From an uncultured Candidatus Rokubacteria bacterium (lineage in GTDB: Bacteria > Methylomirabilota > Methylomirabilia > Rokubacteriales > CSP1-6): DNA of 64,000 nucleotides. The DNA lies in contig CAWHBD010000001.1 in assembly GCA_963827505.1 (NCBI GenBank), forward strand, positions 2,731,006 through 2,795,005, given 5' to 3'. Each line of letters begins with the position of its first letter. Position 1 is the first letter of the stretch. The position numbers and the translations under genes were made by a program. Of this stretch, positions 16,892 through 26,833 are shown one piece after another. Below the pieces are notes generated by a model. It did not search any database. It saw only the letters and a list, made by a program, of their open reading frames with translations, and was not told the DNA's origin.

Positions 16892-18655
16892 CTAGTCGGG
16901 CCGGCGCTCCGCCTCGGGCTCGCTGAGCGGCCGGCCCGACGCCAGCGCCGAGATCTGTCGCGTGCGCGCCGCCCCCAGCGCCTCCGTGGTCGGCTCCAGC
17001 AGCAGACCGTAGAGATGCTCGGCGGCCAGCACCGGGGGGATGAGCACGTAGTCCGCCCCCTCGGCGTAGAGGCGCTCGGCCGACGCCCGGGTGTCGGCGG
17101 TGACGATCGCCCGCGCGCCCGGCACTAGCTGGCGGACCTGACGGAGCAGGCGCAGGTTGTCGGTTCCCTGCAGGAACCAGTCGGAAATGCTCGAGACGAC
17201 GACCTGCGCGTGCTCGATCCCGGCATGGCGCAGCGTGTCCGGGTTGCTGACGTCGCCGTAGTGGCATTCGACGCCGTCGGCCTGCAGCTGCTCCAGCGTC
17301 TCCGGGTTGAAGTCGAGCGCCACGATCCGCCGCTTCATGGCTGGATGCTCGCGCTCCAGGTGGCGCAGGAAGGCCAGCCCCTCGCGCGAGATGCCCAGGA
17401 AGAAGATGTCGTGCGGGTCGGCCGACGTTCGCTCTGTCCCCGGCGCCGGGCGCCCACTCCCCAGCCAGCGCGGCACCCCGGTGGCCTCGAGCGCACGGGC
17501 CAGCGCGGTGGCGAGTGCGTGGTTCCACCGGATCGCGTAGGTCGAGACGACCGCGGTCACGAGCAGCGCGTAGAGCACCAGTGAGGCCAGGGGCTGGCTC
17601 ACGTGGCCGAGGGCCAGCCCCAGCGAGACGATCACCAGCGAGAATTCGCTGATCTGACCCAGGTTGACGGCCACCACCCCGGCCGTGCGTGTGTCGAGCC
17701 GCAGGAACGCGAAGATCGGCAGCATTGCGACCAGGCGGCTCAAGACGACGAACACGGCCACCACCGCCGCCACCAGCAGGAGCTGCCGTGACGGCGCCGG
17801 CACCTTGAGGCCCAGGGCGACGAAGAACAGCGTCACGAAGAAGTCGCGGATGCCCGACAGCCGGGTGACGACCTCGGTACCGTACGGGAAGGCGGCGATG
17901 ACCATCCCGGCAATCAGCGCGCCCATCTCGCGGGACAGGCCCAGCGCGCCGGCGGTGCCGCTCACCAGGAAGCACCACGCGATGGCGGTCACCAGCAGAA
18001 GCTCAGTCGAGCGGGAGACCGAGCGGAACAGGGCGGGCAGCACGTAGCGGGAGAGCACGCCGGCCGAGGCCACCAGCGCCACCCCGGCCGCCACCGAGCC
18101 CAGCAGCACGGCCGGCCGCAGCTCTTGCAGGCTGGGCTGCAGGGCCAGGAACCCGATGGCCCACAGGTCCTGGAAGACGAGGACGCCCAGCGTGATTCGC
18201 CCGGCCAGCGTGCCCATCTCGAACTTGTCGAACAGCAGCTTCACCACGATGAGCGTCGAGGACAGGCTGACGGCGACGGCCAGGTAGAGGCGGTCGAAGC
18301 GGCCGCCGGTGCCGGCCACCAAATGGCCGAACGCCCACCACGCGAGCGCCACACAGATCGGGAACTGCAGGAGGCCGCTGACCACGATGCTGCGGCCGGC
18401 CTGGGCCAGCGCGGGGATGTTGATCTCCAGACCGATGATGAAGAGCAGGAAGATCAGCCCCATCTCGGAGATCAGCTCGATGCTCGCCTCGTCGGCGATG
18501 AGCCCCAGCCCGACGTTCGGGCCCAGCGCGGCGCCGGCGAGGATGTAGCCGAGGATCAGCGGCTGGCGAATGGTGCGCGCGACGAGTGCGAAGGCGGCGG
18601 CGGCGACGATGCCGACGCCGATCGCCATGAGGACGTCCGGATGGGGCGCGGTCAT
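16892..18655 (-). CDS. CPA2 cation:proton antiporter with TrkA-N/KTN domain (Kef-like)
   Basis: QPLILGYILAG, GVLVFQDLW, QISEFSLV, C-terminal YGDVSNPDTL. Confidence 0.88.
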   Translation of the reverse strand: MTAPHPDVLMAIGVGIVAAAAFALVARTIRQPLILGYILAGAALGPNVGLGLIADEASIELISEMGLIFLLFIIGLEINIPALAQAGRSIVVSGLLQFPICVALAWWAFGHLVAGTGGRFDRLYLAVAVSLSSTLIVVKLLFDKFEMGTLAGRITLGVLVFQDLWAIGFLALQPSLQELRPAVLLGSVAAGVALVASAGVLSRYVLPALFRSVSRSTELLLVTAIAWCFLVSGTAGALGLSREMGALIAGMVIAAFPYGTEVVTRLSGIRDFFVTLFFVALGLKVPAPSRQLLLVAAVVAVFVVLSRLVAMLPIFAFLRLDTRTAGVVAVNLGQISEFSLVIVSLGLALGHVSQPLASLVLYALLVTAVVSTYAIRWNHALATALARALEATGVPRWLGSGRPAPGTERTSADPHDIFFLGISREGLAFLRHLEREHPAMKRRIVALDFNPETLEQLQADGVECHYGDVSNPDTLRHAGIEHAQVVVSSISDWFLQGTDNLRLLRQVRQLVPGARAIVTADTRASAERLYAEGADYVLIPPVLAAEHLYGLLLEPTTEALGAARTRQISALASGRPLSEPEAERRPD

Positions 18656-18670
18656 GACGACACCATAGCC

Positions 18671-21052
18671 TCAGGAGGCGCCGAGCGCCCGCAGGGCCTC
18701 GCGAGCCAGCGCGGAGTCGGGCTGCTCGGCCAGCAACCGGCGGTACTCGGCGATGGCCTCGTCCCGCCGTCCCAGCCCCTCCAGCGCCCGGGCCAGGTTG
18801 AAGCGGGCGTCGGCGAGGGCCGGCAGGCGATCCAGCGCGAGCCGGGCGGCCGCGTGGGCGTCGGCGGGGCGGCCGATCTGCAGGTAGGCCGCGGCCAGGT
18901 TCGAGGCGGCGAGCGCACGCGCCTCGTCGGCGCCGTGCCAATCGGCGACGAGGGCCTGGCGCAGCGGCTCGACCGCCTCGGCCGGCCGGCGCGCGGCAAG
19001 CGCCACGTAGCCGACCTGTGCGCGGAGCACGCCGAAGCGAGGGTAGAGCGCGGCACCGCGGGTCACGTAGTCGCGGGCGCGCTCGAGATCGCCGACGGTC
19101 AGCGCGGCGTTGACGGCGTCGGCGTAGAAGTACGCGTTGTTGGGGTCCATGGCCAGCGCGCGGTCGAACTGCGCGAACGCCGCGGCTCCACCGCCCTCAG
19201 CAAGATCGGCCAGCACGCGGCCGAGGTTGGCGTGGTTGTACGAGTTCGCCGGCACCAGCCGCAGCGCGCGCTCGTACGCCATCCGCGCCTGGTCCAGCGC
19301 CCGGGCCCGCGCCGCCGCCTCGGGCGTCAGCCGCGCCTGCGCGTGGGCGGCGGTGCCGAGCTTCACCCAGTACAGCTCGGTGACGGGGTCGAGCGCGATG
19401 GCACGCTGCAGGCGCTCGACGGCCGGCGCCGGCTGGGTCGGCGTGAGCAGGACCCCCTGCTGGGCGGCCCAGGCGGCGGCGAGCGGCCGCAGCACGACGA
19501 CGACGAGCAGGACAGCGCCCGCCAGACTGCCCACCGCCAGCGCCGTCCGGCCTCCGGAGGACCGCGGCCGCACGGCCACCGCGGGCGAGTGGCCGAGCCG
19601 GTCGAGCACGAACGCCACGCCGGCCATTCCCACCAGCGCGGCCACGACGACGAGTCCCCCGATCACCCGGCCCGGCTCGTCGAGCAGCAGCTCGAAGGAC
19701 ACGTTGTGGATGAGGCCGCCGACCGCCAGCACGACCACAACGACGAGCGTGACGGCAAACGCCGGCTGGCGGTCGCGGGGCGGCGCCGGAGTCGCGGCCG
19801 GCCGGGCCAGGCGTGAGAGCAGCGCGGCCTGGGTGACGACCAGCGTGCCGCAGCCGGCGACCGTGAAGCTGAAGAGATCCTGGACGGCGAAGGCCATGGC
19901 CCCGGCGGCCAGGACGACGATCAGCAGCCGGTCCTCCCCGCCTCGCCACGCGCGCCACGCGGCCAGCACGAGGCCGACGACGAGCACCAGCCCCGCGAGG
20001 CCGCCGAGCATGCCCTGCGTGGCCAGCAGGTTGAGCGCCTCGTTGTGGGCGCGCGTGGGGCTGGCGTTCCACTCCAGCGCCCAGTAGGCCGCCGTGCGCT
20101 GGCTCGCGAACGCGAGCTGGAAGGTGTCGAGCCCGCTGCCCGCCACCGGGTGCTCGCGGAAGATTCCCCACGCCGCCGCCCAGATGTGCTGGCGGCTGAC
20201 CGAGTCGCCGAGCTGGCGTACGCGCTGGAGCAGCCCGGCCAGGACCAGGCCGCCGCCCGGCGCCGCGACGGCCAGCAGCGCCAGCGCGGCCACGGTGCCA
20301 CCGGCGGCGGCGCCGGCGGCGAGCGCAGCCCGCCAGTGGCCGGCCGCCAGCGCGCCGGTCACGAGGACGAGCGCGGCGGCCGCCAGCGCCAGCCAGGCGC
20401 CGCGGGAGACCGCGACCGCCACCGTCGTCCCCGCCGCCACGGCCACGATGGCGAGAGCGCCGGCCGCGACGCGGCGCCGGTGGCCGAGCGTGCGCGCGAG
20501 CGCGTAGACGACCAGCGGCAGCGCCATGGCCAGGTACGCCGCCAGGAAGTTCGGGTGGCCGAGCGTCGCGAACGGGCGCACGAGACCGCCGTGCCCGGCC
20601 ACCCGCGCATACAGGATGGGATCGATGCCGGCGACCTGCACCAGCGCATAGACGGCCGCGCCCGCCGCGGCCACCACCGGCGCTAGCAGCAACCGACGAG
20701 CGTCGTCGAGCCCCTCGCACAGGGCCCGAGTGGCCAGGAAAAGCACGGCGTAGCCGAGGAGCGTCGTCAGCCCGAAGTTGCTCTCGTGAGCGCCTAGCAG
20801 CGAGGTCCACGGGCTGATGGACGCCAGCGTGGAGACGACCGCCGAGGCCAGGAAGAGCGCGACGCCCAGGACCAGCGGGTCGCCGGCGAGGGCCCCGGGG
20901 CCGCCGGCCAGCGCCCGCGGGGCCAACGCGCCGAGGACGATGGCCGCCACCAGCAGCAGCGCGACCTTGTTGTACTCGAACGCCTCGATCGTGGCACGAG
21001 AGAAGACGAGCGGCGACAGCGCGAGGTGCCCGAAGAGCACGGCACGACCCAC
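18671..21052 (-). CDS. O-antigen ligase family membrane protein with C-terminal TPR repeats
   Basis: ATLGHPNFLAAYL, SRGAWL, GSGLDTF and AHNEALNLLATQG, followed by TPR-like helices. Confidence 0.82.
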   Translation of the reverse strand: MGRAVLFGHLALSPLVFSRATIEAFEYNKVALLLVAAIVLGALAPRALAGGPGALAGDPLVLGVALFLASAVVSTLASISPWTSLLGAHESNFGLTTLLGYAVLFLATRALCEGLDDARRLLLAPVVAAAGAAVYALVQVAGIDPILYARVAGHGGLVRPFATLGHPNFLAAYLAMALPLVVYALARTLGHRRRVAAGALAIVAVAAGTTVAVAVSRGAWLALAAAALVLVTGALAAGHWRAALAAGAAAGGTVAALALLAVAAPGGGLVLAGLLQRVRQLGDSVSRQHIWAAAWGIFREHPVAGSGLDTFQLAFASQRTAAYWALEWNASPTRAHNEALNLLATQGMLGGLAGLVLVVGLVLAAWRAWRGGEDRLLIVVLAAGAMAFAVQDLFSFTVAGCGTLVVTQAALLSRLARPAATPAPPRDRQPAFAVTLVVVVVLAVGGLIHNVSFELLLDEPGRVIGGLVVVAALVGMAGVAFVLDRLGHSPAVAVRPRSSGGRTALAVGSLAGAVLLVVVVLRPLAAAWAAQQGVLLTPTQPAPAVERLQRAIALDPVTELYWVKLGTAAHAQARLTPEAAARARALDQARMAYERALRLVPANSYNHANLGRVLADLAEGGGAAAFAQFDRALAMDPNNAYFYADAVNAALTVGDLERARDYVTRGAALYPRFGVLRAQVGYVALAARRPAEAVEPLRQALVADWHGADEARALAASNLAAAYLQIGRPADAHAAARLALDRLPALADARFNLARALEGLGRRDEAIAEYRRLLAEQPDSALAREALRALGAS

Positions 21053-21078: not shown

Positions 21079-21597
21079 CTATCGCGTCAGCCTCGCCAGG
21101 ATCTCGTCGAAGGCCTTGTCGGCCAGAGCCCGGACCTCGTCACGCGTGAGCGGCTGGATGGGATGCGCGACCACGACCGTCTTGTAGGCGGCCGCCCCCA
21201 GCGCGGCCGCCTGGGCGGTCGCCGCCCGCACGAACTCGGCGGAGATGACCGTGGCCGTGGGAATACCCTGCTCCTCGAAGAACACGCCGTCGTGCACACT
21301 GCACGTCGTGCAGGACCCTCAATCGGCGAGGGCCTCGACGAGGACGTCGGTCGCGCTGAGAATCTCCCGGCGCAAGGCGACGGGCGCGGGCCGGGCGAAG
21401 GTCGGCTTCTTCTTGCGGACGATCGCCTTCACGCCGGTGCGCTCGCGCAGCAGTTCCTCCAGGCGGTCGAGCAGGTGATCGCTCTTGGCCTTGGCGATGT
21501 CGAGCAGCGTCACCACCTTGCCGTCCAGGCTCGCCGGCCGGGGCGCGGTCGGGCGGGGAACGGCGACGGAGTCGGTCGGGTCGAGGTAGTCGGTCAT
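21079..21597 (-). CDS. UGSC-family selenoprotein (TGA at 21319-21321 read as Sec), 172 aa
   Basis: The two track ORFs are in frame and join as ALAD-U-GSCTTCSVHD. Confidence 0.85.
21291..21313 (-). promoter_or_regulatory. Candidate bacterial SECIS hairpin(s) downstream of the UGA
   Basis: CGTGCA-GTG-TGCACG with loop G 20 nt after the UGA; alternative stem CTGCAC-GAC-GTGCAG. Confidence 0.5.
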
Positions 21598-22706
21598 CGG
21601 ATTTTCCTCATCACGAGGTTTGAGCCCTTCGAGAACGACCAGCCGGCCACGACGGCCGAGAACCGGCCGGCGCTGCCGCCGGCGACCACGATCTGGATGT
21701 GCTCGGGCTTGCGAAACTTGGGGATCAGCGTCTCGTCGTGCTCGGGGTCCGTGAACTTCCGCAGGACGTGCTCGGGCAGCCCGTCACCACCGTCGCGGCC
21801 GGGCACCAGTACCCGCACCGGCTTGTGCAGGCGCTCGAACAGGAAGCGCCGGACGTCCGCCTTGTGCCAGCCGTCGCCGGCGATGATCGCCGCGTGCTCC
21901 GGCGAGAGCACCAGCAGCGTGTCGCCCCAGTGGGTCATCTTGTGGTTCTCGATTACCGCCATGCTGGCCGCGATGGTCGCGCACAGGTCGGGGGCGGTGC
22001 GGCTGCGCTGGTCGTACACGGTGAGCGGCGCGTCGGCCGCCAGCAAGGCCACCGTGTCGTCGGTCGGCGCGAAGCCGTGCTCGACGGCCAGCGACTCCCA
22101 CGGGCTCGCCTCCTCCCGCTCGCCGATGCAGTACGTGTAGCGGCCCGGATGGGCCAGCGTCGACATGCTGACCACGCCCGGCACCGCCCCGCCGAGATTC
22201 ACGCACACGAAGCGCAGCGCGCGGCCGATCGTCGCGTTGGCCCGCCAGCCGGGCCCGAAGACCCCGGCCCCGCAGTTGACGTCGAGGCGGTGACGGATCG
22301 GGCCGTTGACGATCACCAGCGGCGCCGGCGCGTTCGTCGTCGCCGACACGCCGTGCAGGTCGAACGCCTCGTCGCATACCGCCTCCACCGCCGCGATCAC
22401 CACCGGCAGGTACTGCGGGAGGCAGCCGGCCATCACCGCATTGATGGCGATCTTCTCGACGGTCGCGCGGCCGTAGTTGGGCGGCACCAGGGCGATCAGC
22501 TCGTCGGCCGGCCGGCCGAGGGCGTCGAGGGCGCGCTGCACGCGCTCGCGCGTGGGTGGCACGACGGGCAAGCCGTCGGTCAGGCCCCGGGCATAGAGCT
22601 CCTCGACGGGGTCGGGTGGAGCGGGAGGACTCGACGCGGCCGACCGAGCTACGGCGATCTTCGCGCGGCGAGTGGGGCCGCGGCCGGCCGCGGTCTTGCG
22701 AGGCAT
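21594..22706 (-). CDS. UGSC-associated protein (large partner subunit)
   Basis: TDGLPVVPPT, KIAINAVMAGC, GPGWRANATIGRAL and HPGRYTYCIGE, a family that typically precedes UGSC genes. Overlaps the UGSC start. Confidence 0.75.
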   Translation of the reverse strand: MPRKTAAGRGPTRRAKIAVARSAASSPPAPPDPVEELYARGLTDGLPVVPPTRERVQRALDALGRPADELIALVPPNYGRATVEKIAINAVMAGCLPQYLPVVIAAVEAVCDEAFDLHGVSATTNAPAPLVIVNGPIRHRLDVNCGAGVFGPGWRANATIGRALRFVCVNLGGAVPGVVSMSTLAHPGRYTYCIGEREEASPWESLAVEHGFAPTDDTVALLAADAPLTVYDQRSRTAPDLCATIAASMAVIENHKMTHWGDTLLVLSPEHAAIIAGDGWHKADVRRFLFERLHKPVRVLVPGRDGGDGLPEHVLRKFTDPEHDETLIPKFRKPEHIQIVVAGGSAGRFSAVVAGWSFSKGSNLVMRKIR

Positions 22707-22741: not shown

Positions 22742-23716
22742 ATGCGGCGCCCTCGCGCGCTCCTGGCGGTCGTGGCGGCGCTGCTCGTCGGCTGCGCCGC
22801 CGCGCCCGCGACCGTCGACCCGGGCGCCTGGCAGGCTCCGGCCGGGCGCGCGCATCCGCTCGTCGGCAAGATCTGGGACACACGGGCGCAGCGCTTCGTG
22901 TCCTCCGACGCGGTGGTGGCGGGGCTAACCCGCGCGCGCTACGTGCTGCTCGGTGAGCGCCACGACAACCCCGACCATCACCGTGTGCAGGCCGCGCTCG
23001 TGCGCGCGCTGCTGGCGGCTGGCCGGCGGCCGGCGGTGGCGTTCGAGATGTTCACCGCGGACGACGCGACCGCCATCGCCCGGCACCTGACGATCGCGCC
23101 GCGCGATGCGGCCGGGCTGGCCGTGGCCGTCGACTGGAAGCGCTCGGGGTGGCCCGACTGGGCCCACTACGAGCCGATCGCGCAGGCCGCGCTGGACTTC
23201 GGCCTGCCGATCGTCGCCGGCAACCTGGCACCCTCGACAGCACGGGCGCTGGCGCGGGGCGACCGCGGGGCCTTGCCGGGCCGCCTGGCCGAGCAGCACG
23301 CCCTCGACCGGCCAATTCCGGACGGCGGGCAGGCGGCGCTCACCGCCGAGATCGCCGAGGCCCACTGCGGCGCCGTCCCCGCCGAGCGCCTGGAGGGCAT
23401 GGTCCTCGCTCAGCGCGCTCGCGACGCCACGCTCGCCGAGAGCATGCTGACGGCCTCCGGCGACGGCGCCGTGCTGATCACGGGCACCGGCCACGCCCGG
23501 GCGGATCGGGGCGTGCCGATCTACCTGCGCGCACGCGCGCCGGGCGCCACGATCGCCACGCTGGCCCCGCTCGAGGTGCGCGAGGGCTGGACGCGACCGG
23601 AGGACTACGCGGGGGCATACGGGGGGCGGCTGCCGTTCGACTGGGTGTGGTTCACGCCGCGGATGGGCGACGGCGACCCCTGCAGCGGCGTCAAGCGCCC
23701 TCCCGCGCGGAGCTGA
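22742..23716 (+). CDS. ChaN/DUF399 family lipoprotein (heme-uptake-like)
   Basis: Lipobox LVGC, LLGERHDNPDHH, VAFEMF, QRARDATLA, ITGTGHA. Confidence 0.82.
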   Translation: MRRPRALLAVVAALLVGCAAAPATVDPGAWQAPAGRAHPLVGKIWDTRAQRFVSSDAVVAGLTRARYVLLGERHDNPDHHRVQAALVRALLAAGRRPAVAFEMFTADDATAIARHLTIAPRDAAGLAVAVDWKRSGWPDWAHYEPIAQAALDFGLPIVAGNLAPSTARALARGDRGALPGRLAEQHALDRPIPDGGQAALTAEIAEAHCGAVPAERLEGMVLAQRARDATLAESMLTASGDGAVLITGTGHARADRGVPIYLRARAPGATIATLAPLEVREGWTRPEDYAGAYGGRLPFDWVWFTPRMGDGDPCSGVKRPPARS

Positions 23717-24494: not shown

Positions 24495-25911
24495 CTAGTG
24501 GCCCCGACGCCACCAGTGGTGCACGAGATTATCGACCACCTCGCCGAGCTGGCCGATGGTGCGGCACTCGCGCACGATGTCGCAGGCCGGCGCGTACATC
24601 GGCATCACGCTGTCGCCGATGCCCCAGCCCCACTGGCCCTCGGGATTGAGCCAGATGATGCCCTTCACGCGCTCGCGGATCTGTCGCATCGCCCACGCCT
24701 GGGGGTCGTTGTAGTTGTTGCGGGCGTCGCCCAGCAGCAGGATCGGTCGTCTTGCGGTCGAGCGACTCCAGCTCGGTGGTGGCGAAGCGGCTGAACGCGT
24801 AGCCGAAGTCCGAGCGGCAGTGGTAGTCGACCGGCGCGCCCTTGAGCGCCCACTCGATGGCCCGCTCGACCGGGTGGGTCGCTGAACGCGCCTGGTGACC
24901 TCGGCGATCTCGGAGACGAACACGTAGGAGCGCACGCGGCTGAAGCACTCCTGCAGGCTCCACACGAGCTGCAGCATGAAGCGGGAGGCGTTGCGCACCG
25001 AGTCGGAGACGTCGCAGATGGTGATGAGCTTCGGCTTCTCCCGGTGCCGGCGTTTGAGGAAGATCTCCATCGGGATGCCGCCGTACTGGAGGCTCTTGCG
25101 GGTCGTGCGCCGGGTGTCGATGCGGCCCTTCTGCTCCTGCCGCTGGCGCAGGGCCAGCGCGTCCTTGATCCGGCGGGCGAGCCGGGCCACGACCGTTCTT
25201 CATCTGCGCGACCTCGTCGGGGGTCAGCGCGAAGAGCGGCTTGTCGGCGAGGACCTCGCGCGTGAGCTTCTCGCCCGGCCCGGTAGGCCCGGCGCTCCAG
25301 CTCGCGCTCCACGTGCTGACGGATCATGCGGCGGAAGGCCTCCAGCCGCAGCTCCAGGTAGTTGCGGATGCGGGCGAGCTGGCCGGGGTCGAGGCCCCGC
25401 GCCTCCAGGGCCTGCATGATGCTGCTCGATGTCGCGCTCGATGGCCGACCAGTCGAACTGGTCGGAGATGCGGCGGCAGAAGTAGCCGACCTGCAGGAAG
25501 TACATCAGCCGCTCGAGGCCGGCGCTCTGGGCGCCACCCCGGATGGCCATCTCCATCTCGCTCCCCTGCCCGCGCATGAGCAGCTCGGTCAGCTCGTCGA
25601 GCTCGAGGTCCTCCTCGTTGGCCAGCCGGTCGAGCAGATCCTGCACCTTCGGGATCCTCGGGGCCGAGCGCCTTCTTGAGCCCCTCGCCGAGCGCCTCGA
25701 GGTCGAGGAAGTAGAGGTTGAAGATCCGGTTGAAGGTCTCCTGGTCACGGGCCTCCTTGACCAGCGTGGAGGCGAGCGTGGCCTTGAAGGTCTCGCGGTC
25801 GGTCAGGCCGACCTCGGCGCTCGCCGCCAGGGCGTCGAGCGCCTCGGCGGTCGAGATGCGGATCTCGGCCCGCCGCAGGTCGCCGATGAACTCGAGGATC
25901 CGTTCTTCCAT
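24495..25911 (-). pseudogene. CoxE-like VWA-domain protein with multiple frameshifts (possibly sequencing indels)
   Basis: FIGDLRRAEIRISTAE, ICDVSDSV (MIDAS-like), LLLGDARNNY and IWLNPE fragments lie in alternating frames. Confidence 0.8.
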
Positions 25912-25915
25912 CGTC

Positions 25916-26833
25916 CTAGGCCGGGGTGTCCGCGAGGACCTTGTCGAGGGCGCCCTTGACGCGCTCGATGTCCTTCTCGTACTTCACGAGCATCGTCAGC
26001 GTGGACTCGACCAGGGCGGGGTCCAGCTCCTTGGCGTTGAGGATCACCAGCGAGCGGGCCCAGTCGATCGACTCCGAGACGGACGGCGGCTTGCGCAGCT
26101 CCAGCGTGCGGATCTTCTGCACGGCCGCCACCACCGCCTGGGCCAGCCGCTCCGGCGCCTCCGGCACCTTGAGCCGGATGATCTCCAGCTCGTCGGCGGG
26201 GGCGGGAAAGTCGATGAACAGGTGCAGGCAGCGGCGCTTGAGGCCGTCGCTCAGCTCGCGCGCGTTGTTGGAGGTGAGCACGACCAGGGGGATGTGCCTC
26301 GCCTTGATGGTGCCGAGCTCGGGGATCGAGACCTGGAAGTCGGACAGCACCTCCAGCAGGAACGCCTCGAACTCCGGCTCTGCCTTGTCGATCTCGTCGA
26401 TCAGCAGCACGACCGGGTCGTCGGACCGGATCGCCTGCAGCAGCGGGCGCGGGGACAGGAAGCGGTACGAGAAGAACGCGTCGTCTTGGCCGGCGATGCG
26501 CGACACCGCCTCCGGCAGCGAGGGCGCGTCGGCGATCAGCTCGCCGATGCGCTCGCGCAGGAGCTGGGTGTAGAGCAGCTGCTTGGCGTACTTCCACTCG
26601 TAGAGCGCCTTGCCCTCGTCGAGTCCCTCGTAGCACTGCAGCCGGATGAGGGGCCGCTGGGTGACGTCGGCCAGCGTCTTGGCCAGCTCGGTCTTGCCGA
26701 CGCCGGCCGGGCCTTCGATGAGCACCGGCCGTCCCATGCGCGCGGCGAGGAACATGACGGTCGAGATGCGGCGGTTGGAGATGTAGCGCGCGTCGCGGAA
26801 CTGCCGCTGGACGTCTTCCACGGACTCGAACAT
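25916..26833 (-). CDS. MoxR-family AAA+ ATPase (CoxD-like)
   Basis: EGPAGVGKTE, RLQCYEGLD, LLIDEIDKA, LTSNNARELSDGLKRRC. Confidence 0.92.
   Translation of the reverse strand: MFESVEDVQRQFRDARYISNRRISTVMFLAARMGRPVLIEGPAGVGKTELAKTLADVTQRPLIRLQCYEGLDEGKALYEWKYAKQLLYTQLLRERIGELIADAPSLPEAVSRIAGQDDAFFSYRFLSPRPLLQAIRSDDPVVLLIDEIDKAEPEFEAFLLEVLSDFQVSIPELGTIKARHIPLVVLTSNNARELSDGLKRRCLHLFIDFPAPADELEIIRLKVPEAPERLAQAVVAAVQKIRTLELRKPPSVSESIDWARSLVILNAKELDPALVESTLTMLVKYEKDIERVKGALDKVLADTPA

Follow-up and report, generated by a model that had tools for sequence, protein, structure and literature searches.

A selenoprotein gene and its upstream partner

The DNA considered here is a stretch of 64,000 nucleotides (nt) from an uncultured Candidatus Rokubacteria bacterium (contig CAWHBD010000001.1 of assembly GCA_963827505.1), referred to below as the window. 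Its minus strand carries, at 21079..21597, a complete gene of the UGSC selenoprotein family (172 codons, from the ATG at 21597-21595 to the stop codon TAG at 21081-21079) and, immediately upstream at 21594..22706, the gene for a protein of 370 amino acids (aa), here called the partner. The UGSC gene appears as two open reading frames (ORFs) in the same frame, 21597..21319 (92 aa) and 21297..21079 (72 aa). When the TGA codon at 21319..21321 is read as selenocysteine (Sec, U), 21597..21079 yields a single protein of 172 residues, ...DVLVEALAD-U-GSCTTCSVHDGVFFEEQGIPT..., in which the Sec residue stands in the context ...EALAD-U93-GSC96-TTC99-SVHD.... The putative redox motif U93-G-S-C96-T-T-C99 spans 21301..21321, with the codons for its three chalcogen residues at 21321-21319, 21312-21310 and 21303-21301.

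The two genes are arranged for translational coupling (21594..21609). Direct reading of the sequence places a GAGGA (21609-21605) 7 nt upstream of the UGSC initiation codon, and the latter shares the tetranucleotide ATGA at 21597-21594 with the partner's TGA stop codon, a 4-nt overlap. UGSC is the second cistron of the coupled pair and the partner is the first. Scans of the UGSC locus for Rfam families and for promoters and terminators found nothing. The original prediction, made from the letters alone, had described the two same-frame ORFs split by TGA, the ALAD-U-GSCTTC motif and a 370-aa partner overlapping the UGSC start; all of these, coordinates included, proved right. It had also called the selenoprotein "hidden", which is true for gene callers; the family itself, however, has curated models (NF041046, PF24696) and was published as early as 2008.

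With U replaced by C, the window protein scores 157.5 bits against NF041046, "UGSC family (seleno)protein" (cut-off 125), and 169.8 bits against PF24696 (cut-off 25), the latter match covering residues 4-171 of 172. The family, together with its fusion to an unknown domain ("UGSC/Unknown_1"), was published by Zhang and Gladyshev (2008; PMC2398784). The window copy resembles the described family over its full length, with the same D-U-G-S-C motif, the same alternation of Sec and Cys and the same association with an unknown domain. It differs in having an extra Cys (UxxCxxC) and in being part of an expansion in Rokubacteria, where Sec-type copies number 2-12 per genome. The locus is, in other words, a fresh member of a known orphan family and no new kind of system.

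Evidence for translation through the TGA

The orthologue set consists of 54 loci, 45-94% identical, from a scan of species-representative genomes. All but two belong to Rokubacteria/Methylomirabilota (52/54); the remaining two are from Hyphomicrobiales (45-48% identity). The 52 include two contigs labelled otherwise, L048 (DATIWG010000051.1, labelled Nitrosotalea sp.) and L040 (labelled Candidatus Dormiibacterota), both of which encode a Rokubacteria-type UGSC protein with 76-77% identity. These contigs are probably mis-binned; L048 also shares the Rokubacteria synteny.

A TGA at the same codon, followed by GSCTTC, is present in 54 of the 54 loci, and none of 53 loci shows a stop within the 78 codons that follow. 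Differences from the window at codon positions 1, 2 and 3 amount to 0.13, 0.09 and 0.35 after the TGA and to 0.19, 0.13 and 0.35 before it. From this pattern of divergence and the absence of stops, we conclude that the region after the TGA is translated in frame. In a survey of 61 Methylomirabilota genomes, those of the Rokubacteria family show 2-12 UGSC matches each (median about 6) and those of the Methylomirabilis-type family none; each of the 150 UGSC matches listed contains exactly one TGA.

Among 1.84 billion cluster representatives, an exhaustive HMMER search identified 1,109 UGSC relatives; many of these span the full length (170-190 aa) and have Cys in place of Sec. An alignment with homologues having Cys for the TGA had been proposed as a check along with the original prediction; such homologues exist, and the alignment is continuous across the Sec site. 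Residues D92, C/U93, G94 and C96 are conserved in at least 90% of 36 diverse UGSC members, and CGSC is present in 81 of 100 diverse full-length representatives. The column of C99 is far more variable: in 100 diverse full-length homologues it holds W (32), C (30), A (14), S (10) or, in the rest, other residues, and a third Cys of this type occurs in just 3 of 9 UGSC paralogues of the genome. The third Cys is therefore a subfamily feature, and the three-chalcogen site (Sec plus CxxC) of the original prediction does not extend to the family, in which only U/C-G-S-C is conserved.

One could envision that the TGA is instead a true stop, leaving a 92-aa protein and a separate 72-aa protein initiated at GTG 21297, or a pseudogene. 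Public protein databases might seem to agree with this, since these, like gene callers, list mostly UGSC fragments of 94-95 aa ending in ...ALAD, under the name "hypothetical protein" or, for some, "3-hydroxyacyl-CoA dehydrogenase". Against it stand the TGA in every orthologous locus, the purifying selection downstream of it, the unbroken alignment of the Cys homologues and the single TGA in every UGSC match listed for the phylum. The hairpin described next argues in the same direction, and we hold a true stop to be extremely improbable.

A SECIS-type hairpin supported by covariation

The original prediction had noted hairpins at a distance from the UGA suited to a selenocysteine insertion sequence (SECIS). 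We find such a hairpin at 21289..21307 on the minus strand, beginning 11 nt past the UGA. It consists of an 8-bp stem (21307-21300 paired with 21296-21289) containing one A.A mismatch and of a GUG triloop (21299-21297). Since the nucleotides 3' of the UGA are nearly frozen among orthologues, no covariation is visible there, and the paralogues of the genome were used instead. In eight further UGSC genes a hairpin occupies the same register, its 8-bp stem starting after an 11-nt spacer and closing on a GUN triloop. In the alignment of the nine sequences, 91.7% of cells are paired, and two stem pairs show compensatory changes, one from C-G to G-C and the other from U-A to A-U or G-U. None of 500 shuffles matched the observed covariation, and pairing falls to 14-53% when the partner strand is slid. 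The minimum free energy fold of the window's UGA region has a z-score of about 0, so that support for the hairpin comes from comparison and not from folding energy. The GTG at 21297, from which an independent start had been considered, is formed by the last base of the loop and the first two bases of the 3' arm; it thus lies within the SECIS hairpin and is not preceded by a Shine-Dalgarno sequence.

Selenocysteine machinery of the genome

The genome assembly measures 7.0 Mb in 4 contigs, with 70% G+C and an estimated completeness of 63%. As had been asked of the genome when the locus was first described, the Sec machinery is present: a tRNA-Sec with anticodon TCA (69.7 bits), adjoined by selA and selB, and a selD, all three genes scoring above cut-off. 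In the assembly (region C3:1551181-1554516), selA is interrupted by an in-frame TAG and a single frame change, selB by two frame changes. These interruptions speak for the TGA being a true stop and count against Sec decoding in this organism. Several other genes of the assembly are frame-shifted as well, and an uninterrupted full-length SelA is found in five other genomes of the same genus; the sole other broken SelA in the genus comes, again, from an assembly of low completeness with few contigs. Because the genus-mates are intact and completeness is low despite the presence of only 4 contigs, we take the breaks in selA and selB to be, probably, errors of long-read assembly.

Taken with the comparisons above, this shows, at the level of sequence, that 21597..21079 is one UGSC-family selenoprotein gene, the UGA of which would be decoded as Sec with the help of the hairpin.

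The partner protein and its pairing with UGSC

The partner belongs to a family with more than 7,900 relatives in the databases, all of them "hypothetical". Neither the window protein nor 24 members of the family match any Pfam or NCBIfam model, even at E<=5, and sequence searches of the PDB with UGSC and the partner, and with a profile of each, gave nothing meaningful. The gene has a G+C content at third codon positions of 0.94. The first 27 residues or so of the product are disordered, and its conserved motifs include DGLPVVPPT, INAVMAGC, RANATIGR and AENE..SPW. Invariant across 24 diverse partners are G45, T52, A87, A93, G94, G135, P136, N157, I160, G161, R162, E196, W203, G211, G279 and G343. 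The AlphaFold2 model of the partner has a predicted local distance difference test (pLDDT) score of 82 and a predicted template modelling (pTM) score of 0.82. Its best Foldseek matches were class I fumarate hydratases, a fold that was considered for it and rejected, with TM scores of 0.25-0.33, root-mean-square deviations of 14-19 Å and no invariant Cys to supply the three ligands of a 4Fe-4S cluster; matches to Toblerone-fold and PurM-like proteins were weak (TM <=0.33).

At about 50 of the 54 loci, UGSC is directly preceded by the partner. Those without an adjacent partner comprise one contig end, two Rokubacteria contigs and the two Hyphomicrobiales loci. In one of the latter (L067:3542-5557), the partner's place directly before UGSC is taken by a 671-aa ORF that matches no Pfam family and is unrelated to the partner.

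In a census of the genome with hidden Markov models (HMMs), 12 partner genes and 11 UGSC sequences were counted; members of the two families invariably stood side by side or shared a reading frame. These make up about 11 UGSC/partner modules, with at least nine UGSC genes containing a TGA. Both gene orders occur, and three or four modules are apparent fusions, either UGSC-partner or partner-UGSC. Besides the window copy there are ten modules, six of them on contig C1 (82014-83664, 541995-543622, 552355-554133, 1105846-1107437, 2180716-2182350 and 2262724-2265280) and four on other contigs (C4:261198-262783, C4:454459-457345, C2:920746-922321 and C3:2019592-2021008). The Sec codon is TGA in at least eight of the ten; several appear to be fusions, and frame breaks occur in three. 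Fusion proteins of UGSC and partner, 540-570 aa in length, are found in other taxa.

Because the two are adjacent in nearly all orthologous loci, adjacent or fused in the roughly 11 modules of the genome, and joined into single polypeptides in both orders, UGSC and the partner very probably form one complex. The original prediction of a two-subunit selenium-dependent oxidoreductase stands as regards the partner, which is a genuine one, being translationally coupled to UGSC, its neighbour at about 50 of 54 loci and fused to it in other organisms. The oxidoreductase part of the prediction stays conjectural: the partner lacks an invariant Cys, and no gene for a reductase lies alongside.

Predicted structure of UGSC

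The AlphaFold2 model of UGSC, built with 36 sequences, has a pLDDT of 96.5 and consists of five parallel beta-alpha units in a flavodoxin/Rossmann-like arrangement. U93 is placed where strand 85-91 ends and helix 94-109 begins. Foldseek comparison of the model with the PDB returned only generic flavodoxin-like matches (TM <=0.53), namely flavin mononucleotide proteins, lumazine synthase, CheY-like proteins and PTS-IIB domains, and no protein of thioredoxin fold. The "likely thioredoxin-like fold" guessed for UGSC in the literature is thus unsupported. Thioredoxin-fold oxidoreductases with UxxC or CxxC, such as the Trx-, Prx- and DsbA-like selenoproteins, share with UGSC the U/C-x-x-C pair at a helix N-terminus, but differ from it in fold, UGSC being predicted as five flavodoxin-like beta-alpha units.

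So generic a domain would suit an accessory role. UGSC might be a non-catalytic redox or selenium/metal-handling protein (a carrier, a chaperone or a regulatory switch) acting on or with the large protein; UxxC sites are able to bind soft metals, and some genomes have UGSC without an adjacent partner. However, fusions in both orders and the joint expansion to about 11 modules argue for a fixed 1:1 functional unit, and the partner offers no conserved Cys on which a redox chaperone could act. We consider an accessory role quite improbable and return to UGSC as the Sec-bearing subunit of a complex with the partner.

Resemblance to the Sec site of PrdB and GrdB

The genome also encodes PrdB-like (PF07355) selenoproteins, at C3:1367120-1367911, C4:192118-192732 and C3:2080634-2081059, each gene with one in-frame TGA in a U-x-x-C motif; one such sequence reads ...VVLTPA-U-GLC-NQTVGLVQRAIEAAGIPTIGI.... 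PrdB-like selenoproteins are present in 60 of 81 Methylomirabilota genomes, and their public versions end at 171 aa under the label "D-proline reductase PrdB". As the database proteins stop at Sec, a PrdB-like profile was built from the DNA loci of 30 genes.

Aligned with this profile by hhalign, the UGSC profile gave E values of 7e-4 (77 columns) and 3e-3 (79 columns), with a probability of 10-26%. The alignment matches the Sec, the Cys and the E..GIPT of one profile with those of the other. In the controls, 20 column shuffles gave E values of 0.25-0.93 and the reversed profile 0.8. The similarity of the Sec sites hints at distant homology or, failing that, at active sites that are equivalent. 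The window motif U-G-S-C-T-T-C fits exactly the UxxCxxC described for GrdB/F/H of glycine/sarcosine/betaine reductase (PMC6778437, PMC13188914).

What PrdB and GrdB/F/H share with UGSC is the succession of a strand, U-x-x-C (xxCxxC in GrdB), a helix and an E..G-I-P-T strand, as well as a larger, substrate-specific protein encoded next door, comparable to the partner. They differ in several respects. UGSC lacks the N-terminal half of PrdB, some 140 residues; the partner, which is not a relative of PrdA/GrdE, offers no invariant Cys or Ser from which a pyruvoyl group could form; no grdA, grdC or prdC genes lie near UGSC; and its hosts are mostly aerobic soil and water bacteria, not Stickland fermenters. 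The idea that the partner might correspond to the N-terminal half of PrdB-like proteins was tried and dropped: hhalign, with the whole partner or its C-terminal half, gave alignments of only 12-13 columns ("E.E..PW..L"; E 0.01-0.05), which is insufficient.

Contexts of the paralogues and a recurrent NifU-like neighbour

Paralogues lie beside genes for transporters and catabolic enzymes, Peripla_BP_6 among them. In the genome, modules are found next to an Iso_dh dehydrogenase; to SBP_bac_5, SDR, Amidohydro_3 and alpha/beta hydrolase genes; to a URO-D-like protein; and to Hydantoinase_B with a Liv-type ABC transporter. Fused genes elsewhere lie in an NMT1-type ABC transporter/PGA_cap/PrpD cluster, in an acyl-CoA cluster, or beside TctC or TetR and SDR genes.

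Five of seven fused UGSC-partner genes examined in other taxa have a small CxxC protein (82-99 aa) encoded immediately upstream (L070:3876-4136, L104:746-1045, L106:1227-1505, L107:418-681 and L108:6620-6868). All five proteins give weak matches to the NifU domain (PF01106), with E values of 1e-4 to 1e-3 that are sub-threshold in Pfam. One UGSC protein carries a fused NifU domain. The single NifU-like CxxC gene of the present genome (C1:95197-95634) is not adjacent to any module. Such a NifU-like CxxC protein may donate electrons or act as a third component.

Proposed function

We lean slightly towards an overall reading in which the selenoprotein forms a complex with the partner and the complex carries out reductase chemistry. 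Taken by itself, the assignment as a reductase is tentative, and we put its chances at somewhat less than even. It is suggested by the near-invariant D-U/C-G-S-C at a strand-helix junction, the PrdB-like alignment, the UxxCxxC of GrdB/F/H, the NifU-like neighbour and the catabolic contexts. In such a mechanism, the large subunit, with its conserved Thr, Asn, Arg and Glu and no conserved Cys, would bind a small substrate of carboxylate type. The selenolate of U93, at the helix N-terminus of the small flavodoxin-like subunit, would attack the substrate, and C96 would resolve the adduct, leaving an Se-S bond that in the window orthologue could be passed on to C99. Re-reduction would fall to an external dithiol, which could be thioredoxin or the small NifU-like protein with CxxC that accompanies fused versions. 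The parallel would be with the Sec-bearing B proteins of D-proline and glycine reductase, minus the pyruvoyl group.

Besides the broken selA and selB, several observations weigh against this reading. Pairing is not universal, the partner being absent within 6 kb of UGSC in the two Hyphomicrobiales loci. At two further loci (L044:5782-6001 and L048:5178-6001) the partner is reduced to a remnant of 23-56 aa beside an intact UGSC, owing to a deletion or else to an artefact of assembly. The 24 diverse partners share no invariant Cys or Ser, and therefore no pyruvoyl group and no thiol relay are to be expected within the partner. Foldseek comparison of the partner model with the PDB gave no convincing solved relative. 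There is no reductase, thioredoxin or NifU-like gene beside the window copy. Finally, the hhalign probability of the similarity between UGSC and PrdB is low, and PF07355 matched neither the window UGSC (E<=0.01) nor any of 36 UGSC proteins (E<=1), although it does match the PrdB-like genes of the genome.

Some of these points would sit comfortably with the main alternative, non-redox catalysis by the Sec/Cys pair. The complex would then be an isomerase, racemase, lyase or transferase in which Sec, with C96, acts as nucleophile or acid/base and no external reductant is needed. Reductase and thioredoxin genes are lacking beside the other modules of the genome that were examined, as they are beside the window module; the conserved residues of the partner are Thr, Asn, Arg and Glu rather than Cys; and the partner's fold faintly resembles those of hydro-lyases, an epimerase and cyclic amide hydrolases. 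On the other hand, a near-invariant U/C-x-x-C at a helix N-terminus is the classic geometry of a redox pair, and a housekeeping thioredoxin need not be gene-linked. The recurrence of NifU-like CxxC proteins beside the pair or fused to it, and the alignment of the Sec site with PrdB-like reductase subunits, likewise favor redox chemistry. Non-redox catalysis appears to us unlikely.

Within the reductase reading, it is tempting to speculate that UGSC represents a free-standing version of the Sec-bearing C-terminal half of PrdB/GrdB. Together with the large subunit, it might constitute a pyruvoyl-independent, Stickland-like reductase that cleaves C-X bonds next to a carboxylate by means of a selenolate and a resolving Cys. 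Aerobic soil Rokubacteria would then possess 6-12 substrate-specific, all-Sec paralogues per genome, served in some lineages by a NifU-like donor. In this full form the proposal is doubtful. Each of three small points narrows the mechanism: that the predicted fold is flavodoxin-like, that UGSC resembles PrdB/GrdB in register around the Sec site, and that a NifU-like CxxC protein recurs as a neighbour.

The window provides a clean, translationally coupled two-gene example from a genome with about 11 such units, and Rokubacteria would be a good place to search for substrates by comparing the contexts of the paralogues. The locus illustrates, too, that public annotation systematically cuts these genes to 94-aa fragments.

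Neighbouring genes in the window

The genes around the pair have no evident link to it and are syntenic in related Rokubacteria. A Wzy_C/TPR membrane protein is encoded 26 nt downstream of UGSC on the same strand (18671-21052), followed by an Na+/H+ exchanger with a TrkA_N domain (16892-18655, minus strand). On the other side, a ChaN-type lipoprotein gene (Cofac_haem_bdg; 22742-23716, plus strand) diverges from the partner gene, and beyond it lie, on the minus strand, the genes for a VWA CoxE-like protein (24495-25190) and for an AAA (MoxR/CoxD-like) ATPase (25916-26833).

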